DNA of 64,000 bases, taken from positions 4,288,001-4,352,000 of the forward strand of contig CBDDPY010000002.1 in the NCBI GenBank assembly GCA_965232515.1, read 5' to 3'. The notes under the pieces were generated by a model. That model ran no database searches. It saw nothing but the letters and a program-made list of their open reading frames with translations, and was not told where the DNA came from. The stretch comes from Alphaproteobacteria bacterium (GTDB lineage Bacteria; Pseudomonadota; Alphaproteobacteria; GCA-2731375). Below, piece by piece: positions 1 to 13,852 of the stretch. How positions within the stretch are numbered: position 1 is the stretch's first letter; the number at the start of each line of letters is the position of its first letter. Made by a program: the position numbers and the translations under genes.

Positions 1-317
1 TCGTTGAAGACGCCGCTGCCGACGGTGAAGCTGGTGCGGCCGACGCGGACGACACGGGCGCCGATGCGGAGCGCGCCGGGCCAGTGCGCTTCGCGCAGAT
101 AGTTGATGGTGATGCGGGCGACGACGATGCGGTCGTCGGGGCCGCGGTGGGGCCGGATCTCGCGCACGAAGGCGACGCGGCCGGATTCGAAATAGGCGGC
201 GAACGCGGTGTTGTTGACATGGCCGCCGGCGTCCTGGTCGGAGAAGCGGATGGTGTCGTCGACCCAGAAGGCGTAGGTGCCGGGGTCGGCAAGGTCGAAG
301 TTGCTGTCGCTGGTCAT
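1..317 (-). CDS. Acyl-CoA thioesterase (4HBT/FadM hot-dog family), runs off window start
   Basis: Manual translation from ATG 317: MTSDSNFDLADPGTYAFWVDDTIRFSDQDAGGHVNNTAFAAYFESGR...; the D-x-x-G-H-V-N-N motif is typical of 4HBT-like thioesterases. Confidence 0.85.
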   Translation of the reverse strand, partial: MTSDSNFDLADPGTYAFWVDDTIRFSDQDAGGHVNNTAFAAYFESGRVAFVREIRPHRGPDDRIVVARITINYLREAHWPGALRIGARVVRVGRTSFTVGSGVFN

Positions 318-341
318 GGCGTACTCACTCGGTCAGGACGG

Positions 342-776
342 TCATTTCTTGGCGCGGAAGTAGCGGTGGCATTCGGAACAGGTGCGGGTGAGCGCCAGGA
401 AGGCGCCCGCGGCGGTGGCGCCGTCCCGGCGTTCGGCAGCGGCGGCGAGGTCGGCGCCGTGGGATTCGAGGGCGCGGGCACGCTTTTCGAATTCGGGCCA
501 ATAGGACCAGACCTCCGGCTGGGCCCGGCTGGGCGGCGTGAGGCTGCCGGCCGGGAACAGGGCCAGGAACTGACCGGACTCCCGATGCAGACGCGTTGCC
601 TCGGCCGCTACCACGTCGATCCGCAATTCGGTCTGGCCGTTGAACATCGGCGCCATGACTTTCATGGCCTCGCCAATGGATTTCATCAGGTCGATGCGCT
701 GGCGGACGACGTCATCGGCAGCGGCGGGAACGGCGAGCATCGACGCCAACAGGATGGAGACTGTCAGCCGACGCAT
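342..776 (-). CDS. Cytochrome c' / c556 (class II cytochrome c), exported
   Basis: Signal peptide MRRLTVSILLASMLAVPAAA, R..LMK near the N-terminus, C-terminal CSECH heme motif; ATG overlaps the MarR stop (TGATG). Confidence 0.85.
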   Translation of the reverse strand: MRRLTVSILLASMLAVPAAADDVVRQRIDLMKSIGEAMKVMAPMFNGQTELRIDVVAAEATRLHRESGQFLALFPAGSLTPPSRAQPEVWSYWPEFEKRARALESHGADLAAAAERRDGATAAGAFLALTRTCSECHRYFRAKK

Positions 777-1210
777 CAACGGGTGTCGGCGATACGGCGC
801 AGCAGGCGGCGCAGCGTTTCCTGCTCGTCGGCGGTGAGGTCGGCGGCGATGCGTGCCTCGTGCCGGCGGACGAGCGGCCGGAGCGTCGCCACCAGGCGCG
901 CGCCCTCCGGCGACAGGCGCAGGGCGTAGGAGCGGCGGTCGGTCGGCGACGGCGCCCGCTCGACGAGACCCCGGTCCTCGAGCCGGTCGATCACCGCGAC
1001 CACGGTCGAGCGGTCGATGCCGATGGCGTTGCCGAGCTGGGTCTGATTCAGGCCGGTATTGGCCTCGATGAGCGTCAGCACGCCGAATTGGCCCGGCGTC
1101 ACGTCGTGCTCGGCCATCGAGGTCATGAAATCGTTGAATACCCGGTCCTGCGCACGCCGCAGGTTGTAGCCGATCAGCTCGGGCAGCAGGCCATAATCGA
1201 ACTCGCTCAT
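776..1210 (-). CDS. MarR family transcriptional regulator
   Basis: MSEFDYGLLPELIGYNLRRAQ...IDRSTVVAVIDRLEDRGLVER..SPTDRRS wHTH signature; divergent from the catabolic operon. Confidence 0.92.
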   Translation of the reverse strand: MSEFDYGLLPELIGYNLRRAQDRVFNDFMTSMAEHDVTPGQFGVLTLIEANTGLNQTQLGNAIGIDRSTVVAVIDRLEDRGLVERAPSPTDRRSYALRLSPEGARLVATLRPLVRRHEARIAADLTADEQETLRRLLRRIADTR

Positions 1211-1234
1211 ACGGTATTCCCGGCCGCTCGAAAT

Positions 1235-1311
1235 ATTGTTGGGGTACCAAACATTTTTCTTGCCAAGCCCGTTCCCGCCACCTAGGTTATTGTTGGGGAT
1301 GCAAGCAATAA
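1235..1311. promoter_or_regulatory. Two related imperfect palindromes, putative MarR operators
   Basis: ATTGTTGGGG-TAC-CAAACATT (1235-1255) and ATTGTTGGGG-ATG-CAAGCAAT (1289-1309), 54 bp apart in an AT-rich divergent intergenic region. Confidence 0.65.
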
Positions 1312-1324
1312 ACCGGATGGGACG

Positions 1325-2353
1325 GTGACGCACAAGGTTTGGGTCCGTCAGGCCGATCAGACGATCGAAGTAGCCGACGGCGACACGATACTGAACGCCG
1401 CGCTAACTGCCGGCATCGATTACCCCTTTGGCTGCCAGTCGGGCAATTGTGGGGCCTGCAAGTCGCGGCTGCTGGAGGGAAGCGTCGAGATGCTGCCCTA
1501 TTCCGAATACGCGCTGACCGATGAGGAGAAGGCCCAAGGCCTGATCCTGGCCTGTCAGTCGATGCCGGAAGCGGACTGCCGCGTCGGCTGGCTGGACCTT
1601 GACGAGACCGTGCAGCATCCGCTGCGCAAGCTCGACTGCAAGGTCGTGGCCTGCGAGAAGGCGACGCACGACATCACCGTCGTGCGGCTCGACATCGAGG
1701 CCGGCGGACCGTTCAGCTTCAGCGCCGGGCAATACGCCTCGGTGACGTTTCCGGGCCAGGCGCCACGCGACTATTCCATGGCCAGCCGGCCCGAGGACGC
1801 GCAGATCGAATTCCATATCCGCGCCATGGACGGCGGCTCGGTCAGCCACTACGTCAACGAGCAGCTGAAGGTCGGCGATGCGGTGCGGGTCGAAGGGCCG
1901 ATGGGCCTTGCTTACCTGCGCGAGCAGCATACAGGGCCAATCCTGGCCGTCGCGGGCGGCTCGGGCCTGGCGCCGATCAAGTCCATCGTCGAGGAGGCGC
2001 TGGGCAAGGGCATGGGCCAGCCGATCGCGATGTATTTCGGCGTGCGCGGCGAACGGGACCTCTATCTGGAAGAGCACTTCAAGGCGTTGGCGAAGGCACA
2101 CGCGAACTTCGACTTCACGCCCGTGCTGTCCGAGCCGAACGGCGCCACGGACCGGCGTACCGGGTTCCTGGCGGACGCGGTGGCCGCGGACTTCCAGGAC
2201 CTCGACGGCTTCAAGCTCTACATGGCCGGACCGCCGGTGATGGTCGACACGACGACGGCGGCCTGCACGCCGCTGGGCCTGCGGTCGGAGGACCTGCACG
2301 CCGATCCGTTCTATTCCGCGCACGAGTTGGCGGAACAGGGAGCGGCCACATGA
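1325..2353 (+). CDS. 2Fe-2S ferredoxin / FAD-NAD(P)H oxidoreductase (oxygenase reductase component)
   Basis: CQSGNCGAC...C plant-type 2Fe-2S motif, RDYSMAS flavin motif, GGSGLAP NAD motif, AGPPVM. Confidence 0.93.
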   Translation: MTHKVWVRQADQTIEVADGDTILNAALTAGIDYPFGCQSGNCGACKSRLLEGSVEMLPYSEYALTDEEKAQGLILACQSMPEADCRVGWLDLDETVQHPLRKLDCKVVACEKATHDITVVRLDIEAGGPFSFSAGQYASVTFPGQAPRDYSMASRPEDAQIEFHIRAMDGGSVSHYVNEQLKVGDAVRVEGPMGLAYLREQHTGPILAVAGGSGLAPIKSIVEEALGKGMGQPIAMYFGVRGERDLYLEEHFKALAKAHANFDFTPVLSEPNGATDRRTGFLADAVAADFQDLDGFKLYMAGPPVMVDTTTAACTPLGLRSEDLHADPFYSAHELAEQGAAT

Positions 2354-3297
2354 GCGCCGACGAACTCGCCGGCCGCGTGGCGCTGGTGACGGGCGCCGGC
2401 CGCGGCGTTGGCCGCGCCATCGCCGAGAGCCTGGGCGCACGCGGCGCGTCCGTGGTGGTCGCCGACAGCGGCACCGGCATTTCTGGCGACGGCGCCGATC
2501 CCGGCGTAGCGCAGGAGGTGGCGACAGCAATCGGCGACAACGCCGCGGCGTTCACGGAGTCGGTGGCGAGCCCCGGCGCGGCGAAAGCCGCGGTCGAGCT
2601 GGCGGTCAGCCGTTTCGGCGGGCTCGACATTCTGGTCAACAACGCCGCCATCCTGCGCGACGCGTTCGTCTTCAAGGCCGATCCCGGCGACTACGAGGCT
2701 GTGATCCGCAACAACCTGTCGGCCGCCTTTTTCCTGATGAACGCAGGCACGCCTGTCATGCGTGAGCAGGCCAAGGCCGGCCGCGGCGGCGGCGATAGCT
2801 ACGACTGGGGCCGCATCGTCAACATCGTCTCCAGCGCCGGGCTCTACGGCAATCTGGGCCAGAGCGGCTATGCCAGCGCCAAGGCGGGCCTCGTCGGCCT
2901 GACCCGGGTCGCGGCCATGGACCTGGCGCGCGCCGGCATCACCGTCAACGCCGTGGCGCCGTTCGCGGCGACGCGCGTAACCGAGATCATCCAGCCGGCG
3001 AACGATGCGCAGGCCGCCTACAAGGAACGCGCGCTGAAAATCCCGGCGAGCCACGTGGCTGACGTGGTCGCCTATCTGGCCTCGCCGGCGGCGCAGTCCG
3101 TCACCGGCCAGATCTTCGGCGTGCGCGGCCGCGAGGTGTTCCTGTTCTCGCAGCCGCGGCCGGTGGCGCGCATCGTCAACGACGGCGGCCCGTGGGACAC
3201 TGACAGCCTGGCCGCGGCCGTGAACGCCGAGTTCGCTGGTTCCTTCACCGACCTGACCACCGACCTGGAAGCCTTCAACACCGAGCCTGAGATCTGA
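2350..3297 (+). CDS. Short-chain dehydrogenase/reductase (3-hydroxyacyl-CoA dehydrogenase/MFE-2-like)
   Basis: TGAGRGVG, NNAAILRD, S..GLYGNLGQSGYASAK (YxxxK); ATGA overlap with the upstream gene. Confidence 0.9.
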   Translation: MSADELAGRVALVTGAGRGVGRAIAESLGARGASVVVADSGTGISGDGADPGVAQEVATAIGDNAAAFTESVASPGAAKAAVELAVSRFGGLDILVNNAAILRDAFVFKADPGDYEAVIRNNLSAAFFLMNAGTPVMREQAKAGRGGGDSYDWGRIVNIVSSAGLYGNLGQSGYASAKAGLVGLTRVAAMDLARAGITVNAVAPFAATRVTEIIQPANDAQAAYKERALKIPASHVADVVAYLASPAAQSVTGQIFGVRGREVFLFSQPRPVARIVNDGGPWDTDSLAAAVNAEFAGSFTDLTTDLEAFNTEPEI

Positions 3298-3311
3298 CCA
3301 AGGGGTCCATC

Positions 3312-4028
3312 ATGAGCCAAGCCGAGAAGTTCGAAGTCAAGACCGTCGACGAGCTGCACGCCCAGCCCGACGAATACCAGACGATGATCAAGAAGATCGT
3401 CGTCAGCCACGCCGTGAACGAACTCTACGGCGCCCAGGCCTTCGACGAGCCGGCCATCGCATTGGCGCCGACGCCGTACGACAAGTGGCTCGCCTGCCGC
3501 ATCGCCATGGAGGAGTACGGCCACCACGTGCGCTTCCGCGAGCTGGGCGACGAGATGGGCGTGGCGCGCGAGGAGATGACGCCCGAGCAGAAACAGCCGC
3601 TGTCGATCTTCGAGTTCCCGCTGAAGACCTGGGCCGAGTTCTGCGTCATCAAGCTGCTGGCGGATCTGGCCGAGATCCTGCAGGTCGAGGATCTGGTCCA
3701 CTGCAGCTATCTGCCGCTGCGCCGTCTGGCGCGGATGACCATGCCCGAGGAGCGTTTCCACGCCCAGTTCGGCAAGGACACCTGCAGCGACCTGTGCAAA
3801 ACCGAGGAAGGCCGTGAGGCCGTGCAGGCGGCGATCGACGAGTATTTCCCCTACCTGCCGCCGTTCTTCGGCCGGGCCAAATCGAAGAACAACGAGCTCT
3901 ATCGCAAATGGGGCATCAAGCTGCGGACCAACGAAGACATGCGCGAGGACTATCTGCGCCGCGCACGCGAGCTGGTCGAGGACGAGCTGGGCCTGAAGCT
4001 GCCGGACGTCGAACTGGAAGCAGCCTAG
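3312..4028 (+). CDS. Ferritin-like diiron protein, PaaA/PaaC/BoxB family (putative aryl-CoA oxygenase)
   Basis: Ligand pattern E(NEL)...EEYGH...D(LADL)...EERFH plus a PaaA-like C-terminus FFGR..S..N....KWGIK.RTNE. Confidence 0.78.
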   Translation: MSQAEKFEVKTVDELHAQPDEYQTMIKKIVVSHAVNELYGAQAFDEPAIALAPTPYDKWLACRIAMEEYGHHVRFRELGDEMGVAREEMTPEQKQPLSIFEFPLKTWAEFCVIKLLADLAEILQVEDLVHCSYLPLRRLARMTMPEERFHAQFGKDTCSDLCKTEEGREAVQAAIDEYFPYLPPFFGRAKSKNNELYRKWGIKLRTNEDMREDYLRRARELVEDELGLKLPDVELEAA

Positions 4029-4066
4029 CGTCGCGGGCTAAGCTCAGTCCAACGGGAGGACGTGCC

Positions 4067-5119
4067 ATGACCGACGCCGCCACCGAGCAGACCACATCCG
4101 AAACGCGTCAGGAATTCTACGACCGCATCGACGGCGACAACCTGGCGCCGTTGTGGGAGGTGATGAAGAACCTGATCACGCCGGAGCCGAAGACGCCGGT
4201 GCGGCCGGCGGTCTGGCACTATGACGAGATCCGGCCCTACATCATCGAGTCGGGCGAGCTGATCACGGCCAAGGAGGCCGAGCGCCGGGTGCTGATCCTG
4301 GAGAACCCGGGCCTGCGCGGCCAGTCGAAGATCACGCATACGCTCTATGCCGGCCTGCAGCTGATCCTGCCAGGCGAGGTGGCGCCGGCGCACCGGCACA
4401 GTCAGAGCGCGCTCAGGTTCGTGGTCGAGGGCGAAGGCGCCTATACCGCGGTCGACGGCGAGAAGACCATAATGCGGCCGGGCGATTTCGTGATCACACC
4501 GTCCTGGACCTGGCACGACCACGGCAACGAGTCGGACCAGCCGATGGTCTGGCTCGACGGCCTGGACATTCCCATTGTCGGCATGCTGGACGCCGGTTTT
4601 GCCGAAGGCATGGCGCAGGACAGCCAGCCGTTGTCCCGGCCCGAGGGCGACGCGCTGGCGCGCTATGGCTCGGGCCTGCTGCCGGTCGGCTACGAGAACA
4701 CGGCGCCGACTTCACCGGTGTTCAACTATCCCTACGAACGCACGCGCGAAGCACTGGAGCAGATGCGCCGGGCCGAGGAATGGGACGAATGCCACGGCCT
4801 GAAGATGCGCTACGTGAATCCGGTGACCGGCGAGTTCGCCATGCCGACCATGGGCACGTTCATGCAGCTGCTGCCGAAGCACTTCAACACGGCCTCATAT
4901 CGCTCGACCGACAGCATGGTCTATTCCGTGGTCGAGGGCCGCGGCCGGACCGTTGTGGAGGGCGAGATGCTGCACTGGGGACCGCGCGACGTGTTCGTGG
5001 TGCCGAGCTGGCAGCGCCATCACCACGAGCCCGACGAGGACGCCGTGCTGTTCAGCTTCTCCGACCGGCCGGTGCAGCAGAAGCTGGGCCTCTGGCGCGA
5101 GGACCGGGGCAACCATTGA
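4067..5119 (+). CDS. gtdA: Gentisate 1,2-dioxygenase
   Basis: LAPLWE, AERRVLILENPGL, LYAGLQLILPGEVAPAHRH, TPSWTWHDHGN, WLDGLDIP, FSFSDRPVQQKLG; SD GGGAGG upstream. Confidence 0.93.
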   Translation: MTDAATEQTTSETRQEFYDRIDGDNLAPLWEVMKNLITPEPKTPVRPAVWHYDEIRPYIIESGELITAKEAERRVLILENPGLRGQSKITHTLYAGLQLILPGEVAPAHRHSQSALRFVVEGEGAYTAVDGEKTIMRPGDFVITPSWTWHDHGNESDQPMVWLDGLDIPIVGMLDAGFAEGMAQDSQPLSRPEGDALARYGSGLLPVGYENTAPTSPVFNYPYERTREALEQMRRAEEWDECHGLKMRYVNPVTGEFAMPTMGTFMQLLPKHFNTASYRSTDSMVYSVVEGRGRTVVEGEMLHWGPRDVFVVPSWQRHHHEPDEDAVLFSFSDRPVQQKLGLWREDRGNH

Positions 5120-5156
5120 TGCCCTTCCCGTCTCTGCCGTTGCCGCGTTGAGGCCG

Positions 5157-5747
5157 ATGTCGGACCGCGATTCCGAGCTGGACGAGGCTGAGCTCAGCGA
5201 CTTCCCCGGCGTCGCCGCGGCCTCGCAGTTCGCCAAAATGGTGGCGAGCGTGCCGTGGTTCGCAAGCCTCGGCAACGAGCTCGACGACGACGAGATCGAC
5301 TGGGCCGACGCCTATCTCGCCAATCTCGGCTTTCCCGACGCGCATGCCGTGCTGATCGACAGTTGGGAGGACGCCGAGGCCGCAGCGCGCAATCCCGACT
5401 GGAACACCGAGTGGTGGGAAGCGGAAGAACAGATGCGCATGGCGCTGATCTCGGAAGCCTGCGCGCTGGCTGGCGAGGACCGGGTGATGGTGGCGCTGAC
5501 CAACGTCACCAACCAGGTCTCGGACGTGGCGCACGGCGCCGCGGCGGTGGCGGCCGCGCATGCCCGCATCGCCGACGAGGCGCTGATCCGCGCCGCCGCC
5601 GGCGCGGCGACGCAGGCCTGCTATCAGGCCGCGCTGGTACTTGCGGCCGAAGGCGATGAAGAGCATCCTTTCGCCCTGAAGTACCGCCTGTTCGAGAACG
5701 GCCGCTGGCCGTTGAGCGTGGTCGGCAACAGCTTCAATCTTTTCTGA
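5157..5747 (+). CDS. Acidic, Trp/Ala-rich hypothetical protein
   Basis: ORF with typical codon usage between gtdA and FAH; C-terminal HPFALKYRLFENGRWPL; start codon uncertain. Confidence 0.7.
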   Translation: MSDRDSELDEAELSDFPGVAAASQFAKMVASVPWFASLGNELDDDEIDWADAYLANLGFPDAHAVLIDSWEDAEAAARNPDWNTEWWEAEEQMRMALISEACALAGEDRVMVALTNVTNQVSDVAHGAAAVAAAHARIADEALIRAAAGAATQACYQAALVLAAEGDEEHPFALKYRLFENGRWPLSVVGNSFNLF

Positions 5748-5769
5748 CTATCCAGCATCAGGGGCAGAA

Positions 5770-6456
5770 ATGAGTTACGTCATTCCCGAACCGCCGCGCG
5801 CGACGGTGCCGGTCGCCGGCAGCGCCCATACCTTTCCGGTGCGCCGGATCTATTGCGTCGGCCGCAACTACGCGGCGCACGCGCGCGAGATGGGCTTCGA
5901 CCCGGACCGCGAGCCGCCGTTCTTCTTCACCAAGCCGGCCGACGCCATCGTGCCCGACGGCTCGGTGCTGGACTATCCGATGGCGACCGAGAACCTGCAC
6001 CACGAGATCGAGCTGGTCGTCGCCATCGGCACCGGCGGCAGCAACATCGCCGAGGACATGGCGCTGGAGCATGTCTACGGCTACGCCGTCGGCCTCGATA
6101 TGACCCGCCGCGACCAGCAGATCGCCGCGCGTGAGAAGGGCCGGCCCTGGTGTGTCGGCAAGGCCTTCGACCATTCGGCGCCGATCAGCGAGATCCGGCC
6201 GGCGGCCGAGATCGGCCATCCGAGCAACGCCCGCATCTGGCTGGACGTGAACGGCGAGACGCGCCAGGACAGCAACCTGACGCACCTGATCTGGAACATT
6301 CCCGAGACCATCGCATACCTGTCGGGCCTGTTCCAATTGGAGCCGGGCGACCTGATCTATTCGGGCACGCCCGAAGGCGTCGGCGCGGTCGGTGCCGGCG
6401 ACAAGCTCTCGGGCGGCGTCGACGGCGTCGGCACGCTCGACGTCAGCTATCGCTAG
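5770..6456 (+). CDS. Fumarylacetoacetate hydrolase family protein (fumarylpyruvate/acylpyruvate hydrolase-like)
   Basis: RRIYCVGRNYAAHAREMG, PPFFFTKP, HHEIELVV, DMTRRD, GDLIYSGTPEGVG. Confidence 0.92.
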   Translation: MSYVIPEPPRATVPVAGSAHTFPVRRIYCVGRNYAAHAREMGFDPDREPPFFFTKPADAIVPDGSVLDYPMATENLHHEIELVVAIGTGGSNIAEDMALEHVYGYAVGLDMTRRDQQIAAREKGRPWCVGKAFDHSAPISEIRPAAEIGHPSNARIWLDVNGETRQDSNLTHLIWNIPETIAYLSGLFQLEPGDLIYSGTPEGVGAVGAGDKLSGGVDGVGTLDVSYR

Positions 6457-6474
6457 CCGGGACGACAGACGGTC

Positions 6475-7275
6475 ATGCGCCTGAAGATCGCCACCTGGAA
6501 CATCAACTCGGTCCGTTCGCACATGGACACGGTGCGGCAGTTCGATGCCGAACACGCGCCCGACATCCTCTGCCTGCAGGAGACCAAGGTCGCCGACGAG
6601 CTGTTCCCGCTCGAGGCCTTCGAGGCCATGGGCTACAAGCACCACGCCATCAAGGGCCAGAAGGCCTATCACGGCGTCGCCACCTTCTCGCGCGAGCTGC
6701 CGCTCGAAAAAATCACGCGGCTCGACTGGTGCGGCAAGGAGGACGCGCGGCATGTCGCCTGCACCATCGCCGGCGACATCGTGTTGCACAATTTCTATGT
6801 GCCGGCCGGCGGCGACGTGCCGGACCCGGAGAAGAACGACAAGTTCGACCACAAGCTGACCTTCATGACCGAGGCGGCGGATTGGTTCCGCAAGCGCAAG
6901 CGGCGCAACAACCGTTTCCTACTGGTCGGGGATCTCAATGTCGCGCCGCTGGAGACCGACGTCTGGAGCCACAAGCAGCTTCTGCGCGTGGTCAGCCACA
7001 CGCCGGTCGAGGTCGAGCATATGGATCGCTGGTACGCGAGCCACGACTGGGTCGACGTGGTGCGCCGCTACATCCCGCCGGAGGAGAAGGTCTATTCCTG
7101 GTGGAGCTACCGCTCGCCGAACTGGGAAAAGGCCGACAAGGGCCGGCGGCTGGATCATATCTGGGCGACGCCGGCGCTGGCCGACAACCTGCGTCACGCC
7201 GAGGTGGTGAAGGCCGCACGCGGCTGGACGCCGGCGAGCGACCATGCGCCGGTGATCGCCGAGCTGGAGCTTTAG
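6475..7275 (+). CDS. xth: Exodeoxyribonuclease III
   Basis: ATWNINSVR, LCLQETK, GDLNVAP, YSWWSYR, GRRLDHIW, SDHAPV. Confidence 0.95.
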   Translation: MRLKIATWNINSVRSHMDTVRQFDAEHAPDILCLQETKVADELFPLEAFEAMGYKHHAIKGQKAYHGVATFSRELPLEKITRLDWCGKEDARHVACTIAGDIVLHNFYVPAGGDVPDPEKNDKFDHKLTFMTEAADWFRKRKRRNNRFLLVGDLNVAPLETDVWSHKQLLRVVSHTPVEVEHMDRWYASHDWVDVVRRYIPPEEKVYSWWSYRSPNWEKADKGRRLDHIWATPALADNLRHAEVVKAARGWTPASDHAPVIAELEL

Positions 7276-7276
7276 C

Positions 7277-8710
7277 TTGGTCGCTCGCGACCTGACGCCG
7301 TTCTTCTATCCCAAGAGCGTCGCGGTCGTCGGCGCCGGCGAACGGCCGGGCAGCTCCGGCGGCGCGGTCTGCCAGAACCTCGATATCAGCGGCTATGCCG
7401 GCGCTGTGGTGCCGGTGAACCCGAAGGGCGGCACGATCTTCGGCAACGAAGCGCGGACCAGCCTGCGCGAGTTGGAGCAACCCGCCGACCTGGCGGTGAT
7501 CGTGATCCGGCCGGATTTGATTCCAGGCGCCGTGCGCGAGGCGGCCGAGACCGGGCACAGGAACCTGCTGATCCTGCCGGGTGGATTCGCCGAGGCCGGG
7601 GCCGAGGGCGAGGCCCGCGACGCCGAGGTCCGGGCGGTCGCCGCCGAGGCCGGCGTCACCATCGCCGGGCCCAACTGCGCCGGCATCATCCACCTGACCG
7701 ACGAGAGCCGGTTCGGCGCCACGTTCCTGCGCGACATGCCGCCCGGCGGCGGCATCGCCTTCATCTCGCAGTCCGGCGCGCTGGCGGAGGAAGCCATCGC
7801 CGCGGCCAACGACCGCGCCCTCGCGCTCGGTACCGTGGTCTCGGTCGGCAACGCCATGCATCTCGGCGTCGAGGACTATCTGGAGTTCCTGGGCGAGCAG
7901 GACCGCTGCACCTGCGTTTTGCTCTATGTCGAATCCATCGAGGACCCGGCCCGGTTCCGCGACATCGCCCGCCGCGTCGCGGCGAAAAAGCCGGTGGTGA
8001 TGTTCATGGCGGGCGGCACCGGGCCCGGCGGGCCGGCCGCCCGCGCGCACACCGGCGCGGTGATCAACGACGCCGAGACCATTGCGGCCTTCGCCGCCGA
8101 CTGCTGCGCCGTGCAGGCGACGTCGCTGCGCCGGCTGCTGCTGGCAGCGAAAGCCTTCGGCGCGCATCCGCAAGGCATCGGCAAGCGGGCGCTGATCCTG
8201 TCGAACTCGGGCGGACCGGGGGTGATCTGCACCGACCGGGCGGCGCGCGAGGGCCTGGACCTGCCGCCACTGCCGCCGGCGATGGCGCAAGCCATGCACG
8301 CCGAGCTACCGCCGGAGGCGTCGGTGGCCAACCCCATCGATCTGCTGGCGGACGCGCGCGAGGACCGTTTCGGCCTGACGCTCGACCTCGCCATCAAGCA
8401 TGGGCCGAGCACGTTCGATGCCATCCTGATGATCCACGTGGTGCCGTTCATGGTCGACGCCGGCCCGGTGATCGAGCGCCTCGCCGCCGATGTCGGCAAA
8501 TCGCCGCTGGCGGTGTTCCATTCGATGATGGGCACGCTGCCGGGCAAGGCCGAATGGTTCGCGGCCATGGAAGCCGCCGGCGTGCCCATGTTCAACGACG
8601 TCGAGGAAATGGCCGAGGCCGCCGGCATGCTGGCGCAATACCCCGACCTGAAAGCGCGCGCCGCCGCGCCCCCGGAAGGCGTTCTCGGCTTGAAAGGCCG
8701 CGGCGGCTGA
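7277..8710 (+). CDS. ADP-forming acetate/acyl-CoA ligase alpha subunit (no ATP-grasp domain)
   Basis: PKSVAVVGA, PVNPK, GGFAE, GPNCAG, SQSGAL, AHTG phospho-His motif, SNSGGPG, NPIDL; TTG start. Confidence 0.85.
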   Translation: MVARDLTPFFYPKSVAVVGAGERPGSSGGAVCQNLDISGYAGAVVPVNPKGGTIFGNEARTSLRELEQPADLAVIVIRPDLIPGAVREAAETGHRNLLILPGGFAEAGAEGEARDAEVRAVAAEAGVTIAGPNCAGIIHLTDESRFGATFLRDMPPGGGIAFISQSGALAEEAIAAANDRALALGTVVSVGNAMHLGVEDYLEFLGEQDRCTCVLLYVESIEDPARFRDIARRVAAKKPVVMFMAGGTGPGGPAARAHTGAVINDAETIAAFAADCCAVQATSLRRLLLAAKAFGAHPQGIGKRALILSNSGGPGVICTDRAAREGLDLPPLPPAMAQAMHAELPPEASVANPIDLLADAREDRFGLTLDLAIKHGPSTFDAILMIHVVPFMVDAGPVIERLAADVGKSPLAVFHSMMGTLPGKAEWFAAMEAAGVPMFNDVEEMAEAAGMLAQYPDLKARAAAPPEGVLGLKGRGG

Positions 8711-8732
8711 TACGCATTGGCCGATGGCCGCG

Positions 8733-8830
8733 CTTCGAGACGCGCCGTTGGCGCTCCTCAGCGTGAGGCTGGAGCTCGATATCAGTTCCTTGCCTTACGC
8801 TGAGGAGGTCCCGAAGGGACCGTCTCGAAG
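8733..8830. repeat. REP-like palindromic element, family A
   Basis: CTTCGAGACG..CTCCTCAGCGTGAGG...CCTTACGCTGAGGAG..CGTCTCGAAG; same family at 11536 and 40420; lies between convergent genes. Confidence 0.85.
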
Positions 8831-8842
8831 CGCGCCATCGGG

Positions 8843-10084
8843 TCAGCCCTTCACGCAGACCACCTGCTTCAGCGTGTGGACCACGTCGACCAGGTCGGTC
8901 TGGGCGGCCATGACGGCGTCGATGTCCTTGTAGGCCATCGGCGTCTCGTCGATGACACCCGTGTCCTTGCGGCATTCGACGCCCTCGGTGGCGGCGATGT
9001 GGTCCGCCTCCGTGAAGCGCCGCTTGGCCTCGGCCCGCGACATGGCGCGGCCGGCCCCGTGCGAGCACGACAGGAAGGCATCCGCGTTGCCCTTGCCGCG
9101 CACGATGTAGGACCGCACCCCCATGCTGCCCGGAATGATGCCGAGCTCGCCGTCGCCGGCGCGCACGGCCCCCTTGCGGGTGACCCAGACCCGGGCGCCG
9201 AAATGTTCCTCGCGGGCGACGTAGTTGTGGTGACAGTTGACCGCCACCTCGCCCACGCGGAAGTCCGTGAACGTCTCGGCCATGACCTCGAGGATCCGGG
9301 CCATCATGCATTCGCGGTTCGCCCGCGCGAAGGCCTGGGCCCAGCCGACCGCCTTGACGTAGTCGTTGAAGCCCTCGGTGCCCTCCGGCAGGTAGGCGAG
9401 ATCGGCGTCCGGCAGCCGGATGAACCAGCGCTCCATCTCGCGCTTGGCGCGCTCGATGAAATAGCTGCCGATGCGGTTGCCGATGCCGCGCGAGCCCGAG
9501 TGCAGCATCACCCACACCCGATCCGCTTGGTCGAGGCAGACCTCGACGAAGTGGTTGCCGGTGCCGAGCGTGCCCAGGTGATGCACGCTGTTGGCCTTGG
9601 CGAGCTTCGGGTGCTTCTCGGTTAGCGCCTTGAGCCCGGTCTCGAGCGTACCGTCGCGGTAAGGCGTGTCGCGCCATGCCGAGGCCACAACATCCGGCAC
9701 ATCGGTCCAGGCGCCGGCGTCGCGGCGGCGGTCACCCTTGCCGGTACGGCCATGCGGCACCGCGGCCTCGATGCCCGCGCGCAGGTCCGACAGGCTGTCG
9801 GGCAGGGCCTGCGAGGTCAGGCTGGTCTGCACCGCCATCATGCCGCAGCCGATGTCGACGCCGACCGCGGCCGGGATGATCGCGGCCTTGAGCGGGATCA
9901 CGCTACCGACGGTGGCGCCCATGCCCCAGTGCACGTCCGGCATCGCGGCGACATGCTTGTGCACGAACGGCAGGCTGGCAACGTTGCGGAGCTGCTTCAG
10001 CGCCGCATCTTCCACCGGCACGCCCTTGGTCCAGGCCTTGATCGGCGCGCCGCCTTCGGTCTCGATGTACTCGTACCCACTCAT
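8843..10084 (-). CDS. rtcB: RtcB family RNA ligase
   Basis: AMPDVH, AVGVDIGCG, LGTLGTGNHF, LHSGSRG, NCHHNY, HGAGR, DETPMAYK all intact; SD GAGGAGAGG. Confidence 0.96.
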   Translation of the reverse strand: MSGYEYIETEGGAPIKAWTKGVPVEDAALKQLRNVASLPFVHKHVAAMPDVHWGMGATVGSVIPLKAAIIPAAVGVDIGCGMMAVQTSLTSQALPDSLSDLRAGIEAAVPHGRTGKGDRRRDAGAWTDVPDVVASAWRDTPYRDGTLETGLKALTEKHPKLAKANSVHHLGTLGTGNHFVEVCLDQADRVWVMLHSGSRGIGNRIGSYFIERAKREMERWFIRLPDADLAYLPEGTEGFNDYVKAVGWAQAFARANRECMMARILEVMAETFTDFRVGEVAVNCHHNYVAREEHFGARVWVTRKGAVRAGDGELGIIPGSMGVRSYIVRGKGNADAFLSCSHGAGRAMSRAEAKRRFTEADHIAATEGVECRKDTGVIDETPMAYKDIDAVMAAQTDLVDVVHTLKQVVCVKG

Positions 10085-10138
10085 TGTTCCTCTCCTCAGA
10101 TGCGGGTCCCAAGATTGCGCCGCCCATGTCGGGTCATC

Positions 10139-10172
10139 AAAAAACCCCTCCGGAGCGGGTCTCGGGAGGGGT
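10139..10172 (-). terminator. Intrinsic terminator inside the rtcB 5' leader
   Basis: Minus strand ACCCCTCC-CGAGACCCGCTCC-GGAGGGGT followed by a T run (6 T), ending ~55 nt before the rtcB ATG. Confidence 0.8.
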
Positions 10173-10204
10173 CGCGGTGTGCTTGGCTGTGTTGCCTTGT
10201 CGGC

Positions 10205-10318
10205 TTAAGCGATGCGCACGCCCTCCTGGTCCGTGGCGGACAGTGTCCGCCCGGAATTCTTGCTGTTGGCGGCCGGGTAAGCCGCGACCGCTATCGTTGA
10301 GGTTTCTGAACTACGCAT
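10205..10318 (-). CDS. Putative 37-aa leader peptide (uORF) of rtcB
   Basis: MRSSETSTIAVAAYPAANSKNSGRTLSATDQEGVRIA*; stop ~33 nt before the terminator hairpin; translation unproven. Confidence 0.45.
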   Translation of the reverse strand: MRSSETSTIAVAAYPAANSKNSGRTLSATDQEGVRIA

Positions 10319-10376
10319 CGTTCCGCTCGCTTCGTGCCCGAGGCCGTTGCCTCGAAGCGGCTCTCGGAGGTCGAGG

Positions 10377-10405
10377 GTGATACAGCCTTCGGTCGCGCCG
10401 GTCAA
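10377..10405 (-). promoter_or_regulatory. Putative sigma70 promoter for the rtcB leader
   Basis: Minus strand TTGACC-N17-TATCAC. Confidence 0.5.
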
Positions 10406-10433
10406 GGTTTATGCCCGCAAAGCCGCTGTTCCG

Positions 10434-10502
10434 CGTCATGCTGGCGAAGGCCAGCATCCACGGCAGACTCGGAAATGGATCCTGGCCTGCGCCAGCATGA
10501 CG
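10434..10502. repeat. Alphaproteobacterial palindromic repeat, family B (CGTCAT...ATCCA / TGGAT...ATGACG)
   Basis: CGTCATGCTGGCGAAGGCCAGCATCCA-spacer-TGGATCCTGGCCTGCGCCAGCATGACG. Confidence 0.85.
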
Positions 10503-10521
10503 GCAGACGTGGAAGCTGCCG

Positions 10522-11481
10522 CTACTCGAAACTGAAGCCCATGGTGCGGCAGTGGTAGTAGAGGCCGCCGTCCTGGACGATGAGGCAGAGCATGCGCTCG
10601 GCGCCATCGTTGTGGTGCGAGTGCATTTCGGCCGGCGGCGTCACCATGACGGCGTTCTCGGCCCAGTCGATGCGCTGGCCGTCGATCACCGAATAGCAGT
10701 CGCGGCCCTGCACCGAGAGGGTGACGGCCACTGAGTTATGCCGGTGCGGCGTCTGCGCGTCGCCGGACGGCAGCGAGTTCATGGCGAGCGTCAACGTCGG
10801 CGTGATGTTGCGGACATCGGCCAACTTGTCGCTCGAAAAAATCAGCGCGTAGCCCGGCCGCGGCACGACATGCTCGAGCTCGGCATAGACGCGGTCGAAC
10901 TGCTGCGCGATCTCGGCCGCGGGATAGTGCACGGCCTGGACCAGCGCCTCGTCGGCCTTGGGCGGCTGAAAACGCTCGAAGGCGAGCTCGGGCTCGTTGG
11001 TGATCAGCCAGAGAATGCTGTCGGTATCGCCCGCGGTATGCACGCTTTCGTGTCCGCCCGGCAGTGAGAAGACGTCGCCTTCCGCCCAGTCGATGCGCTC
11101 AGCCCCATTCTCGGTATGGCCGGCGCCGGCGCAAACGTAATAGAGCTCGCCGCTAGCGATCAGGTTCGTCGACAGCGTCTCGCCCGCGCGGATGCGGACG
11201 TAGCGCGTCAGGATCAGCGGCGTCGTCGCCGGCGCGTCGAGGCCCATGGCGGCGCTGAGGTCGAGATCGATCAGGCCGGTCGGCGTATCGGCGGCGAAGG
11301 CCCGATCGCGCTCGGCCAGGAACTGGTGCTTCGGCACCGGCGGCTTCTTGATGTTGAAGGCGTTGCCGGAATGGAAGAACCGCGCCCGCCGCTGCTGCGG
11401 CGTCGCCGCGCCGTCGGCCGGCACGCCGTCGAAGCTATCCGTCCCGGTCTCGACCGCCGCCGTTTTCGCGCTCGCCATCAC
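10522..11481 (-). CDS. Bicupin dioxygenase-like protein (distant gentisate 1,2-dioxygenase relative)
   Basis: Two cupin repeats; C-terminal TPHRHNS...TPPAEMHSHHN...IVQDGG. Confidence 0.75.
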   Translation of the reverse strand: MMASAKTAAVETGTDSFDGVPADGAATPQQRRARFFHSGNAFNIKKPPVPKHQFLAERDRAFAADTPTGLIDLDLSAAMGLDAPATTPLILTRYVRIRAGETLSTNLIASGELYYVCAGAGHTENGAERIDWAEGDVFSLPGGHESVHTAGDTDSILWLITNEPELAFERFQPPKADEALVQAVHYPAAEIAQQFDRVYAELEHVVPRPGYALIFSSDKLADVRNITPTLTLAMNSLPSGDAQTPHRHNSVAVTLSVQGRDCYSVIDGQRIDWAENAVMVTPPAEMHSHHNDGAERMLCLIVQDGGLYYHCRTMGFSFE

Positions 11482-11535
11482 GTCCTCCCCACGCCGTTGC
11501 CTGCGACGATCTTACACGAAAACCAAGTCGGCCGG

Positions 11536-11633
11536 CTTCGAGACGCCGGCTACGCCGGCTCCTCAGCCTGAGGTGGAGGAGATTGAAAACGAGAATGCCT
11601 CAGCCTGAGGAGGCCCGAAGGGCCGTCTCGAAG
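11536..11633. repeat. REP-like palindromic element, family A
   Basis: CTTCGAGACGCCGGCTACGCCGGCTCCTCAGCCTGAGG...CCTCAGCCTGAGGAGGCCCGAAGGGCCGTCTCGAAG. Confidence 0.85.
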
Positions 11634-11641
11634 GCGGCAGG

Positions 11642-12049
11642 TCAGGACTTGGGCGGCAGGACGAGTTGGGTTTGCGTGACGAGCGCGGCGAGCTTGCCGG
11701 CTTCGGTGGTGATGCGGGTCTGCCAGACCATGGTGGTGCGGCCGCGATGCACGGGCGTGGTCTCGGCCGTGAGCGTGGTGCCGACGGGCGCGGCGGCCAC
11801 AAAGTTGGTCTTGCTTTCGATGGTCGTGGTGCCGGCGCCCTGGGGCAGGTTCAGGAACGTGGCGACGCCGCCGAGCGTATCGGCGAACGCCATCAGCGCG
11901 CCGCCATGCGCGACGGCCGGACGAGTGCAGAGATCGTCGCGGACCGGCAGTTCGGCAACGATGCGCTCGGGCGTCGCTTCCGTCAGACGAATACCCATCA
12001 GCTTGCCGAACGGCAGCATGTTCTCGTTGAGCATGTCGAGCTGGTCCAT
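11642..12049 (-). CDS. PaaI family thioesterase
   Basis: AHGGALMAFADTLGG, TTIESKTNF, HRGRTTMVWQT. Confidence 0.9.
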   Translation of the reverse strand: MDQLDMLNENMLPFGKLMGIRLTEATPERIVAELPVRDDLCTRPAVAHGGALMAFADTLGGVATFLNLPQGAGTTTIESKTNFVAAAPVGTTLTAETTPVHRGRTTMVWQTRITTEAGKLAALVTQTQLVLPPKS

Positions 12050-12287
12050 GTCATGTCCTCCGATCCGACGCGTTGGCTTCGCGCCATACTGACAGCGAGC
12101 ATCGTCGGTTCAATTACGTCCGAGGTAGGCGCGGACGGCAAGACAGCATTCACGGCAACTTGCGATGGGCGCCGGACTGCGCGAGCATTGATCCCGGCGA
12201 AATCGCCAGCTCGGCGAATCCCTTAGAGAACCGAATGACAAATGGCCGACGCACCGATGGCCGAAATGGAAGGGAGGTCCAGACATT

Positions 12288-13265: not shown

Positions 13266-13290
13266 CGCCGGTCAGCAACGCCATATCGAC

Positions 13291-13324
13291 AGCCCCGCCC
13301 GCCAAGACCTGGCCGGGCGGGGCT
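13291..13324 (+). terminator. GC-rich hairpin after dctP (mRNA stabiliser or weak terminator)
   Basis: AGCCCCGCCC...GGGCGGGGCT 10-bp stem, no U-tract. Confidence 0.5.
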
Positions 13325-13359
13325 CCCATTACGATCCGCTGTCCGGAAGGAGCTCCGCC

Positions 13360-13839: not shown

Positions 13840-13852
13840 CGGCGGCGCGAAC

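Follow-up and report, generated by a model that had tools for sequence, protein, structure and literature searches.

Eight co-oriented genes occupy the forward strand at 1325–8710 of the window, a 64,000-nucleotide stretch of alphaproteobacterial DNA, with intergenic gaps of −4 to 38 nt (Table 1). A scan of the forward strand of this run for terminator-like sites found none. All of the genes named in the sequence-only reading of the locus (reductase, SDR, 238-residue diiron protein, gtdA, FAH hydrolase, MarR regulator and 4HBT thioesterase) were recovered by Pfam, NCBIfam and open reading frame (ORF) analysis. The co-oriented run is likewise confirmed, apart from a 196-residue ORF between gtdA and the FAH gene that the earlier gene list had missed, and it extends past FAH through xth and the acyl-CoA-synthetase alpha-like gene (6475–8710). 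The MarR and 4HBT genes, described as lying divergently, are both on the reverse strand, but a cytochrome c' gene separates the two. PaaB, PaaC and PaaD, a Rieske protein and a flavin hydroxylase had been noted as missing, and none was matched among the ORFs scanned (window 1–11481 and 8 kb upstream); in the first three of these the locus differs from the paa system.

Table 1 Features at the start of the window, with the evidence for each assignment
Feature	Position	Strand	Basis
4HBT/YbgC-type thioesterase, N-terminal 105 codons of 142 aa	1..317	-	Pfam matches 4HBT_2 and 4HBT, from the full-length gene in locus L005; remainder falls before position 1
Cytochrome c'	342..776 (start about 342)	-	Pfam Cytochrom_C_2, 89.9 bits; C-terminal CxxCH in translation
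MarR-family regulator	776..1210	-	Pfam MarR and MarR_2; divergent from the operon
Divergent promoter region	1211..1324		11-nt direct repeat, read from sequence
NAD(P)H:ferredoxin-type reductase	1325..2353	+	Pfam Fer2, FAD_binding_6, NAD_binding_1
SDR, MFE-2 / (3R)-hydroxyacyl-CoA dehydrogenase type, 315 aa	2350..3297	+	Pfam adh_short
PaaA-like ferritin-fold diiron protein, 238 aa, proposed aryl-CoA oxygenase	3312..4028	+	Pfam PaaA_PaaC, 102 bits
Gentisate 1,2-dioxygenase (gtdA), bicupin	about 4067..5119	+	TIGR02272, 584 bits; two Cupin_2 domains
Conserved protein, 196 aa, without known family	5157..5747	+	ORF between gtdA and FAH
FAH-family hydrolase	5770..6456	+	Pfam FAA_hydrolase, 186 bits
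Exodeoxyribonuclease III (Xth)	6475..7275	+	TIGR00195, 192 bits (cut-off 182.6)
ADP-forming acyl-CoA-synthetase alpha-like protein, CoA-binding, 477 aa	7277..8710	+	Pfam CoA_binding_2 and Succ_CoA_lig

The MarR regulator is closest in NCBIfam to the Saro_0803 family (103 bits, below the cut-off of 200), and many related loci have a homologue upstream, encoded on the other strand. Within the divergent promoter region (1211–1324), which gave no match to the sigma-70 consensus, an 11-nt direct repeat, TATTGTTGGGG, occurs at 1234–1244 and 1288–1298; the pair is a candidate MarR operator. The genes from 1325 to 6456, perhaps to 8710, rather probably constitute a single operon that the divergently encoded MarR protein would repress, a judgement made jointly with that on the whole aryl-CoA-to-gentisate reading set out below.

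The proposed oxygenase, its reductase and the SDR

The model of the 238-residue protein (pLDDT of 94.4) has the ferritin-like fold of PaaA from the 1,2-phenylacetyl-CoA epoxidase PaaABC(D)E (Escherichia coli and Klebsiella; 3pvr, 3pw8, 4iit). PaaA is its best match both in sequence (E-values of 3e-19 to 4e-18, about 27% identity) and in structure (TM-score of 0.89 and r.m.s.d. of 1.6 with 3pw8 chain C), and the closest structures are of PaaA with CoA esters bound; PaaC is more distant (TM-score of 0.79, 15% identity). The complete diiron ligand set read from the sequence holds: E37, E68xxH71, D118 and E147xxH150 align column for column with the E/ExxH/D/ExxH ligands of the E. coli and Klebsiella PaaA, and the six are invariant or nearly so in an alignment of 40 sequences.

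The protein is nevertheless distinct from PaaA. It lacks the C-terminal part of that protein (about 310 residues), reaches 97 bits with TIGR02156, the PaaA equivalog (cut-off 280), and has Ile64 in place of Lys68, the residue of the lysine bridge described for PaaA in the available text of PMC4498308. In a phylogeny, a check proposed earlier, the family forms its own clade (SH-aLRT 99–100), separate from true PaaA. The uncharacterised short PaaA/PaaC-like protein SSO1313 of Sulfolobus solfataricus (4mud; about 223–235 residues) shares the fold (TM-score of 0.83–0.88) but is only 22% identical (E-value of 1e-7) and, as a structural-genomics entry, adds no functional information.

As in PaaABC(D)E, electrons would come from a 2Fe-2S flavoprotein reductase. 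Its N-terminal 2Fe-2S domain (Fer2, residues 10–81) is followed by the FAD and NAD domains, which is the order in BenC and MmoC and the reverse of that in PaaE, and the NCBIfam scores are 216 bits for BenC, 185 for MmoC and 135 for PaaE, all below cut-off. The SDR carries the TGxxxGxG and YxxxK motifs and an Asp after strand 2; its best solved relative is the (3R)-hydroxyacyl-CoA dehydrogenase 2et6 (210 bits).

A predicted partner of the oxygenase

Scans of Pfam and NCBIfam with the 196-residue protein gave no match. None of its 388 homologues has a recorded Pfam domain, and every source-given name among the 120 matches listed is 'hypothetical protein'. The only fold neighbours of its model (pLDDT of 93) are two polymorphic-toxin immunity proteins (Z-scores of 11.8 and 9.8). 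Modelled together with the oxygenase, it gives a complex score of 0.70 (0.75, 0.70 and 0.65 in the individual runs), compared with 0.04 for the best of three controls; 58 of 80 solved complexes attain the mark applied to this score, as do 2 of 110 mismatched pairs, and both counts hold only approximately since own alignments were used. The runs share at least 88% of contacts, with a partner pLDDT of at least 88, and the predicted contacts involve residues 53–66 and 149–156, on the oxygenase helices bearing E68/H71 and E147/H150. The complex model thus passes its controls and supports binding of the 196-residue protein over the iron-ligand helices, so the earlier description of the oxygenase as 'stand-alone' is probably wrong.

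Conservation across phyla

Linkage was counted over 129 unique loci of 149, with denominators that vary by feature; the loci are related by descent, most of them from related Alphaproteobacteria, and the counts overstate their independence. Recurrence in 129 unique loci places the arrangement far beyond chance. Unlike PaaA, the oxygenase is nearly always paired with an SDR (directly upstream in 118/121 unique loci) and usually with the 196-residue homologue, which lies downstream in 70/96. Linkage to gtdA or the reductase had been named beforehand as a point on which the reading could fail, and homologues are linked: 90 of 114 unique loci have the reductase upstream, and a gentisate-type dioxygenase (GDO) is directly downstream in 66 of 100, where the paa system has PaaG/PaaZ. 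An acyl-CoA-synthetase alpha-like gene follows in 49/84, and 27/77 have an FAH gene no more than 8 kb away. Of the loci scored for GDO, 34/100 have none next to the oxygenase and 25/77 none within 8 kb; whole groups without it include a Stellaceae subset, Reyranella and Vulcanimicrobiota.

The SDR/oxygenase/dioxygenase core occurs in Alpha- and Gammaproteobacteria, Chloroflexia and Acidobacteriota, so that the proposed conservation of the neighbourhood with gtdA extends to four distant lineages. An Acidobacteriales locus (L120) has, all on the forward strand, the 196-residue homologue, a PaaK-type ligase, SDR, PaaA-like protein, GDO-family dioxygenase, 4HBT thioesterase and FAH. Two Chloroflexia loci (L099 and L094) contain a thioesterase, SDR, PaaA-like protein, dioxygenase, FAH and PaaK-type ligase. 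A gammaproteobacterial locus (L148) combines reductase, SDR, PaaA-like protein, GDO (534 bits), 196-residue homologue, AMP-binding ligase, thioesterase and a maiA-type isomerase (280 bits, above cut-off); the ligase is nearest to 3-hydroxybenzoate- (320 bits) and benzoate-CoA ligases (285 bits), both below cut-off. In L120 and L099 the 4HBT thioesterase gene is part of the run, in L148 it belongs to the same co-oriented run, and in L094 it lies beyond an integrase gene. In marine Alphaproteobacteria a thioesterase and a TRAP transporter precede the reductase, CoA-transferase genes lie upstream in locus L019, and TRAP or ABC uptake systems are present in relatives' operons.

The dioxygenase of the window exceeds the gentisate cut-off of TIGR02272 (442 bits). 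Those of Chloroflexia and Acidobacteriales fall below it (338–359 bits), and the Chloroflexia enzymes score slightly higher for 5-aminosalicylate dioxygenase, at 371–375 bits against a cut-off of 650. Gentisate is therefore not necessarily the compound whose ring is cleaved at every locus.

Release of the product by a thioesterase, as first proposed, is consistent with the 4HBT thioesterases that travel with the module elsewhere, but does not extend to the gene in the window, which lies behind cytochrome c' and is no orthologue of theirs. It shares 24% identity with the thioesterase of the L120 operon, had no BLASTP match at E ≤ 0.01 to the types in L049, L134 and L099, and matched a fourth further operon type over a 40-residue stretch only (30% identity, E-value of 0.003); it probably stands outside the conserved module. 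A PaaK-like ligase 2 kb upstream is 25–27% identical to the operon-type ligases and sits in a different operon, together with two QueG/RDH-like genes. A search of this genome for orthologues of the operon-type thioesterase and PaaK-type ligase found none, the best matches (26% and 34% identity, respectively) lying elsewhere.

Proposed route and alternatives

The module probably marks an undescribed CoA-dependent degradation of simple aromatic acids; a literature search found no description of this system. On balance we favour the view that the operon serves the catabolism of such acids through CoA-bound intermediates to gentisate, with each catalytic step, the substrate and the order of steps inferred. 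CoA dependence is supported by the SDR relative, by the PaaA–CoA structures and, in other phyla, by CoA ligases in the operons and 4HBT thioesterases in or beside them. The outline of the CoA-dependent gentisate route drawn from the sequence thereby stands, through gene linkage, the CoA-type SDR, the PaaA fold and these ligases and thioesterases; its use of the window's own thioesterase and of a stand-alone oxygenase probably does not.

In this scheme an aromatic acid would be taken up and converted to its CoA thioester, with benzoyl-CoA or a monohydroxybenzoyl-CoA as first guesses at the substrate. The only operon-borne candidate for activation would be the acyl-CoA-synthetase alpha-like protein (TIGR02717, 354 bits, below the cut-off of 567; solved relatives 2csu and 4xyl). 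It co-occurs with a PaaK-type ligase in 0 of 69 loci. Against this role, ligases of this kind require an ATP-grasp half, and there is no ATP-grasp domain in the protein and no ATP-grasp_5 gene nearby. The BenC/MmoC-type reductase would pass electrons to the diiron protein, assisted by the 196-residue partner bound over the iron-ligand helices, and the aryl-CoA ring would be oxygenated by epoxidation or hydroxylation. The MFE-2-type, NAD-dependent SDR could then oxidise a ring hydroxyl beta to the thioester, giving re-aromatised gentisyl-CoA or, in other lineages, possibly another 5-substituted salicylyl-CoA; this chemistry is a guess, because direct hydroxylation of a hydroxybenzoyl-CoA would need no SDR. 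After cleavage of the thioester, gentisate 1,2-dioxygenase would open the ring and the FAH protein, a candidate maleyl- or fumarylpyruvate hydrolase by sequence, would split the product.

A distinctly less probable alternative is that the module acts on a CoA ester but does not make the dioxygenase substrate; it might process a side chain or another compound of the same regulon, gentisate being supplied by an enzyme elsewhere in the genome. The frequent absence of GDO beside the oxygenase, set against the nearly constant SDR, points that way, as do an SDR family best known for beta-oxidation-type hydroxyacyl-CoA oxidation and operon genes without an obvious role (xth and the acyl-CoA-synthetase alpha-like gene). 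However, a GDO-family gene lies immediately 3' of the oxygenase in four distant lineages, no hydratase or thiolase for side-chain beta-oxidation is found in the annotated operons, and the ORFs scanned in the first 11.5 kb of the window included no gentisate-forming enzyme of another type.

It is unlikely that the substrate of the diiron protein is a free aromatic acid, such as salicylate or 3-hydroxybenzoate, that it would hydroxylate, with the CoA-related neighbours incidental or serving other steps. This genome has no convincing aryl-CoA ligase or orthologous thioesterase with the operon, and the change of Lys68 to Ile64 indicates active-site surroundings unlike those of PaaA, for which the available text of PMC4498308 describes the bridge; yet CoA ligases of two families, 4HBT thioesterases and the L019 CoA-transferases accompany the module elsewhere, the ever-adjacent SDR is of the hydroxyacyl-CoA type, and the characterised relatives PaaA and BoxB use CoA thioesters according to the same text. 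Inherited synteny without common function, or a non-catalytic structural role like that of PaaC, is very improbable: most loci come from related Alphaproteobacteria, and Xth (in many alphaproteobacterial loci, missing from the marine group and other phyla, and probably an unrelated gene held by synteny) shows that unrelated genes can persist here, but the core recurs amid different neighbours in Chloroflexia, Acidobacteriota and Gammaproteobacteria, the metal ligands are kept, and the model is nearer to PaaA than to PaaC.

The favoured aryl-CoA-to-gentisate reading has a counterpart in BoxAB, the benzoyl-CoA 2,3-epoxidase of Azoarcus evansii (3per, 3pm5), a diiron aryl-CoA oxygenase like that proposed here, for which benzoyl-CoA is one plausible substrate too. 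According to the available text of PMC4498308, BoxB has no PaaC-like structural subunit and is served by a separate reductase. At about 470 residues it is weakly similar to the 238-residue oxygenase (E-value of 0.008, TM-score of 0.70–0.72 over the query), TIGR03225 gave no match to the latter at E ≤ 0.001, and no BoxC or BoxD genes were seen at this locus. In contrast to the Box route, the ring would here be retained and later cut by a dioxygenase.

SdgC and PhgA are flavoproteins. CoA-dependent gentisate routes are described in the available text of PMC7862547, PMC11848710 and PMC13215587 for SdgABC (salicylyl-CoA 5-hydroxylase, Streptomyces sp. WA46) and PhgABC (4-hydroxybenzoyl-CoA 1-hydroxylase with NIH shift, Brevibacillus laterosporus), PhgA as a single hydroxylase that was expressed in E. 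coli with PhgB and PhgC only. The proposed route follows the logic set out in these texts: a ligase, hydroxylation of the ring while it is bound to CoA, a thioesterase and then gentisate 1,2-dioxygenase. Compared with the systems as described there, it stands apart in having a diiron oxygenase served by a reductase of its own, together with an obligatory SDR and a predicted partner protein.

Organization of the operon and its flanks

The gene map was built from an ORF listing together with Pfam and NCBIfam scans. The genome has a size of 7.39 Mb, and the first 12 kb of the window have a G+C content of 63–70%. The plus-strand genes between 1325 and 8710 are separated by gaps of −4 to 38 nt, and a search of the plus strand of this run returned no terminator-like site. 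A promoter scan of window positions 1–9000 found no sigma-70-like site. The gene run described in the sequence-only reading, comprising a 2Fe-2S/flavin reductase, an SDR, the diiron protein and gtdA with an FAH hydrolase nearby and with MarR and a thioesterase divergent, stands as described, except that the reading lacked the gene of a conserved 196-aa protein, that a cytochrome c' gene intervenes between the two divergent genes, and that the run extends to 8710.

Genes at the start of the window (positions in the window)
Feature	Position	Strand	Remarks
4HBT/YbgC-type thioesterase	317 down past window start	-	whole gene of 142 aa in L005, a locus of this genome
Cytochrome c'	about 342-776	-	between thioesterase and MarR; start overlaps MarR stop
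MarR	776-1210	-	
Fer2-FAD-NAD reductase	1325-2353	+	BenC 216 bits, MmoC 185 bits, both below cut-off
SDR	2350-3297	+	
PaaA_PaaC protein P0001	3312-4028	+	238 aa
Gentisate 1,2-dioxygenase (GDO)	about 4067-5119	+	TIGR02272 584 bits, cut-off 442
196-aa ORF	5157-5747	+	no family match
FAH hydrolase	5770-6456	+	
Exodeoxyribonuclease III (xth)	6475-7275	+	18 nt after FAH, 1 nt before synthetase-alpha-like gene
Alpha-type half of ADP-forming acyl-CoA synthetase	7277-8710	+	477 aa; no ATP-grasp domain
RtcB RNA ligase	8843-10084	-	downstream of operon
Further cupin-domain protein	10522-11481	-	downstream of operon, after RtcB

The dioxygenase is a bicupin with two Cupin_2 stretches and passes the curated cut-off for gentisate 1,2-dioxygenase. 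A bona fide xth lies inside the catabolic run, and many alphaproteobacterial loci retain the xth/synthetase pair even if they lack GDO and FAH. The 114-nt intergenic region between MarR and the reductase (1211–1324) contains an 11-nt direct repeat, TATTGTTGGGG, at 1234–1244 and 1288–1298 (54 nt apart), which represents a possible operator. In four RNA libraries, drawn from two studies, contigs extend across the whole of window positions 1200–8800; one of them, 6,666 nt long, spans 1304–7934. Most pieces are 90–99% alike and derive from relatives, not from this strain; they hint that relatives express the region, with the reservation that such libraries may contain DNA and that contigs cannot prove transcripts.

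The PaaA-like oxygenase and its predicted partner

Residues 3–235 of the oxygenase P0001 align with residues 5–247 of PaaA from Escherichia coli and Klebsiella (E 3e-19 to 4e-18), and the alignment retains the PaaA ligand columns E / ExxH / D / ExxH as E37, E68/H71, D118 and E147/H150. The closest structural match of the AlphaFold model (pLDDT 94.4) is PaaA (PDB entry 3pw8 chain C; TM 0.89, r.m.s.d. 1.6, 27% identity), followed by the uncharacterised SSO1313 (4mud), PaaC (TM 0.79, 15% identity), aldehyde-deformylating oxygenase and BoxB (TM 0.70–0.72). Against the PaaA equivalog model TIGR02156, P0001 scores 97.1 bits (cut-off 280), compared with 329–534 bits for true PaaA representatives. A tree of 81 PaaA_PaaC proteins places the P0001 family in a clade of its own (SH-aLRT 99), joined by two sister representatives at SH-aLRT 100 and by two more at 98, and the six proteins that pass TIGR02156 occupy a separate clade (SH-aLRT 99). 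By its profile score, P0001 is not a PaaA equivalog. It is likewise distinct from BoxB, which is about 470 aa long and matches P0001 in the PDB at E 0.0079; the BoxB model TIGR03225 gave no match at E ≤ 0.001.

The lysine bridge of PaaA, formed by Lys68 with Glu49, Glu72 and Asp126 (PMC4498308), differs in P0001. In the HMMER alignment, Lys68 is replaced by Ile64 and Glu49 by Asp45, and Glu72 and Asp126 correspond to Glu68 and Asp118. Genes for PaaB, PaaC, PaaD and a PaaE-type reductase were not found among the ORFs scanned around the operon, and the operon reductase scores higher against BenC (216 bits) than against PaaE (135 bits). PF05138 has only four matches in the genome, none in a paaABCDE arrangement. 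Elsewhere in this genome, at locus L006 (7564–11069, corresponding to G000:C2:3365564–3369069), a PaaX-like regulator adjoins the only other PF05138 genes, a stand-alone PaaA_PaaC pair whose members are encoded on opposite strands. The paaB, paaD and paaE genes were not found beside this pair, and one of its proteins groups with another uncharacterised clade of the 81-protein tree.

The P0001 family comprises 2,370 matches, more than 100 of them at 69–79% identity, and its members, where named at source, are called 'PaaA', 'Phenylacetic acid catabolic protein' and, once, 'phenylacetate-CoA oxygenase subunit PaaI'. Cultured carriers include Iodidimonas muriae JCM 17843, Desertibaculum subflavum and Oceanibacterium hippocampi. 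If the present assignment is right, the widespread label 'phenylacetyl-CoA epoxidase subunit PaaA', with its misleading suggestion of phenylacetate catabolism, would need correcting, and a PaaA-type enzyme would be found to work without PaaB, PaaC and PaaD.

None of the 388 homologues of the 196-aa protein has a recorded Pfam domain, and among the 120 homologues listed every name given is 'hypothetical protein'. The model of the protein (pLDDT 93, pTM 0.88) consists largely of helices and ends in a small sheet at the C-terminus. Foldseek returned nothing from the PDB at E ≤ 0.001, and a VIA search of 48,161 chains gave only two clear matches, both polymorphic-toxin immunity proteins (9t38 chain B, Z-score 11.8 with 139 aligned residues and r.m.s.d. 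3.7; 8ows chain A, Z-score 9.8 with 120 aligned residues; next Z-score 4.3). We read these matches as a likeness of fold, not of function, given that helical proteins may reach such Z-scores through a common arrangement. DUF2203, a single weak lead (0.85) from the otherwise unnamed clusters of a homologue in the Protein Atlas, was set aside.

Modelling of the oxygenase and the 196-aa protein as a complex supports binding between the two. The complex scores 0.70 (runs 0.75, 0.70 and 0.65), against 0.04 for the best of three controls. Among reference pairs, 58 of 80 solved complexes attained that mark, as did 2 of 110 mismatched pairs; these counts apply only roughly, because our own alignments were used. 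The runs agree in at least 88% of contacts, and the partner has a pLDDT of at least 88. The predicted contacts involve oxygenase residues 53–60, 62–64 and 66 as well as 149, 152–153 and 156, on the two helices that bear E68/H71 and E147/H150. Effector proteins and reductases of other diiron oxygenases dock at a similar place. For PaaA itself, the iron-binding helices are described as exposed where PaaE is proposed to dock, and PaaA alone as insoluble without PaaC (PMC4498308). Because the predicted contacts recall such docking and PaaA needs PaaC, we infer that the 196-aa protein may be a structural or effector partner of the oxygenase, which would give a family of 388 'hypothetical' members a testable role. 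Any likeness to the MmoB-type effector of bacterial multicomponent monooxygenases, a small protein without cofactor that binds the hydroxylase over its diiron helices, is functional at most: MmoB-type proteins are not among the fold matches listed for the model, and a Pfam match is also absent.

Conservation of the module across lineages

Two scans of contigs, with one genome per species and the best 80 of 410 and of 455 confirmed relatives kept, respectively, yielded 149 loci (129 unique). The most constant neighbour of the oxygenase is the SDR, found directly upstream in 118 of 121 unique loci; the reductase is present in 90/114, the 196-aa protein in 70/96, the synthetase-alpha-like gene in 49/84, FAH in 27/77, a 4HBT thioesterase (profile search) in 20/77 and a PaaK-type ligase in 7/77, where each count takes only loci with enough flank and the loci, as kin to each other, are not independent. 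The linkage to gtdA and the reductase that the sequence-only reading called for is borne out, with GDO directly downstream of the oxygenase in 66 of 100 unique loci and anywhere within 8 kb in 52 of 77.

Recurrence in distant lineages with different surroundings is stronger evidence than these raw counts. In an Acidobacteriales locus (L120), one co-oriented block contains the 196-aa homologue, a PaaK-type ligase, the SDR, the PaaA-like protein, a GDO-family dioxygenase, a thioesterase and FAH. Two Chloroflexia loci (L099 and L094) combine a thioesterase, the SDR, the PaaA-like protein, a dioxygenase, FAH and a PaaK-type ligase with a PucR regulator, and L094 additionally carries an ABC binding protein. 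The gammaproteobacterial locus L148 comprises the reductase, SDR, PaaA-like protein, GDO, 196-aa homologue, an AMP-binding ligase (most similar to 3-hydroxybenzoate- and benzoate-CoA ligases, with scores below cut-off), a thioesterase and a maiA-type isomerase; a DyP-type peroxidase also lies within this operon, at 10381–11265. Marine alphaproteobacterial loci begin with a thioesterase and a TRAP transporter, and a further locus (L019) has CoA-transferases upstream. In L094, a phage-type integrase and a DDE transposase (11396–14626) separate the ligase from the thioesterase, hinting that the module is mobile.

The system is not rare: the oxygenase (E ≤ 1e-50) occurs in 25 of 401 sampled alphaproteobacterial species genomes, a tally that includes the present genome and one unpublished genome (G240), and in 20 of the 337 of good quality, and reaches four further lineages (Gammaproteobacteria, Chloroflexia, Acidobacteriota and Vulcanimicrobiota). 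Whole groups have no GDO beside the oxygenase, namely a Stellaceae subset (also without the reductase), Reyranella and Vulcanimicrobiota. In the Chloroflexia and Acidobacteriales loci, the dioxygenases score below the gentisate cut-off, those of Chloroflexia leaning slightly towards 5-aminosalicylate dioxygenase; the common denominator of ring cleavage may therefore be a '5-substituted salicylate' rather than gentisate.

Proposed CoA-dependent route and its entry and exit steps

Aerobic aromatic degradation passes through few central intermediates, of which gentisate is one. In the known routes, gentisate is formed by Rieske or flavin hydroxylases acting on free acids, or by flavin-type enzymes acting on CoA esters; the present gene set would provide a further entry that depends on CoA and relies on a diiron enzyme. 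CoA-dependent gentisate routes (Sdg and Phg; PMC7862547, PMC11848710, PMC13215587) and diiron aryl-CoA epoxidases (Paa and Box; PMC4498308) are both already described; what is new in the system is the combination, not the principle. It joins dioxygenolytic cleavage to a short PaaA-clade enzyme without PaaB, PaaC and PaaD, a reductase of another type, an SDR of the CoA type that is obligatory, and a partner without a known family. Searches of full-text literature, with a coverage that leaves out most subscription journals, returned no account of gentisate being formed by a PaaA-like or diiron enzyme.

Among solved structures, the SDR best matches the (3R)-hydroxyacyl-CoA dehydrogenase of MFE-2 (210 bits). 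The SDR carries the glycine motif, YxxxK and an Asp after strand 2, which by the usual rule for SDRs denotes NAD preference. In a ring-carboxyl-CoA the ortho carbon is beta to the thioester, and an ortho hydroxyl is common to all GDO-family substrates; our best guess is therefore that the SDR re-aromatises the oxygenation product. The diiron enzyme would oxygenate an aryl-CoA on its ring, yielding a product that is no longer aromatic, and the SDR would oxidise the ortho hydroxyl of this product, restoring aromaticity and giving gentisyl-CoA, to be followed by thioester hydrolysis, ring cleavage and hydrolysis by FAH. The leading substrate candidates, between which we state no preference, are 3-hydroxybenzoyl-CoA and benzoyl-CoA; for the latter, O2 would supply one oxygen and water the other.

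A more specific version, which we consider rather unlikely, starts from benzoyl-CoA. A minimal three-protein diiron aryl-CoA oxygenase, composed of the 238-aa PaaA-like catalytic subunit, the BenC/MmoC-type reductase and the 196-aa protein as a new effector or coupling protein, would act with the MFE-2-type SDR to convert benzoyl-CoA to gentisyl-CoA by epoxidation, water addition and NAD-dependent re-aromatisation, a net para-dihydroxylation that would be redox-neutral. If true, it would supply genes for aerobic benzoyl-CoA-to-gentisate routes, which were reportedly found biochemically in the 1990s and 2001, one of them assigned to a flavoenzyme.

For the oxygenation and re-aromatisation scheme in general, this genome leaves the attachment and the release of CoA unexplained. 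No aryl-CoA ligase lies within the operon. The synthetase-alpha-like protein is a candidate replacement for the ligase. The protein keeps a His-Thr-Gly motif, which we take to be at the place of the phosphohistidine in such enzymes, and its gene and a PaaK-type ligase occur together in 0 of 69 loci (40 have the former gene type, 5 the ligase and 24 neither), but this split follows phylogeny, the protein has no ATP-grasp half, and no ATP-grasp partner was found nearby. That the pathway is completed by the PaaK-like ligase 2 kb upstream and by the thioesterase, which is encoded on the opposite strand at two genes' distance upstream, is not supported, as they are not orthologues of those travelling with the module. 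The ligase is 25–27% identical to the operon-type ligases of other lineages, which share 50–65% identity across phyla, and is only the fourth-best match to them in the genome. The thioesterase shares 24% identity with one of its operon-type counterparts; BLASTP (E ≤ 0.01) gave no match to three others and, with a fourth, a stretch of 40 residues only (30% identity, E 0.003). A genome search returned no closer match to the operon-type thioesterase.

The upstream ligase belongs to an operon of its own, located just before the window (L005 6982–11480, corresponding to G000:C2:4282982–4287480). There, a divergent AraC regulator, which controls the operon, faces three genes encoding two QueG/reductive-dehalogenase-like 4Fe-4S proteins (350 and 334 aa) and, last, the PaaK-like CoA ligase, with a gap of 4 nt between the last two genes. 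Searches by tblastn with both QueG-like proteins found them in 0 of the 149 related loci. Judging from their pairing with an aryl-CoA ligase beside the operon of the putative aryl-CoA oxygenase, these B12-type reductases might reduce or dehalogenate an aryl-CoA.
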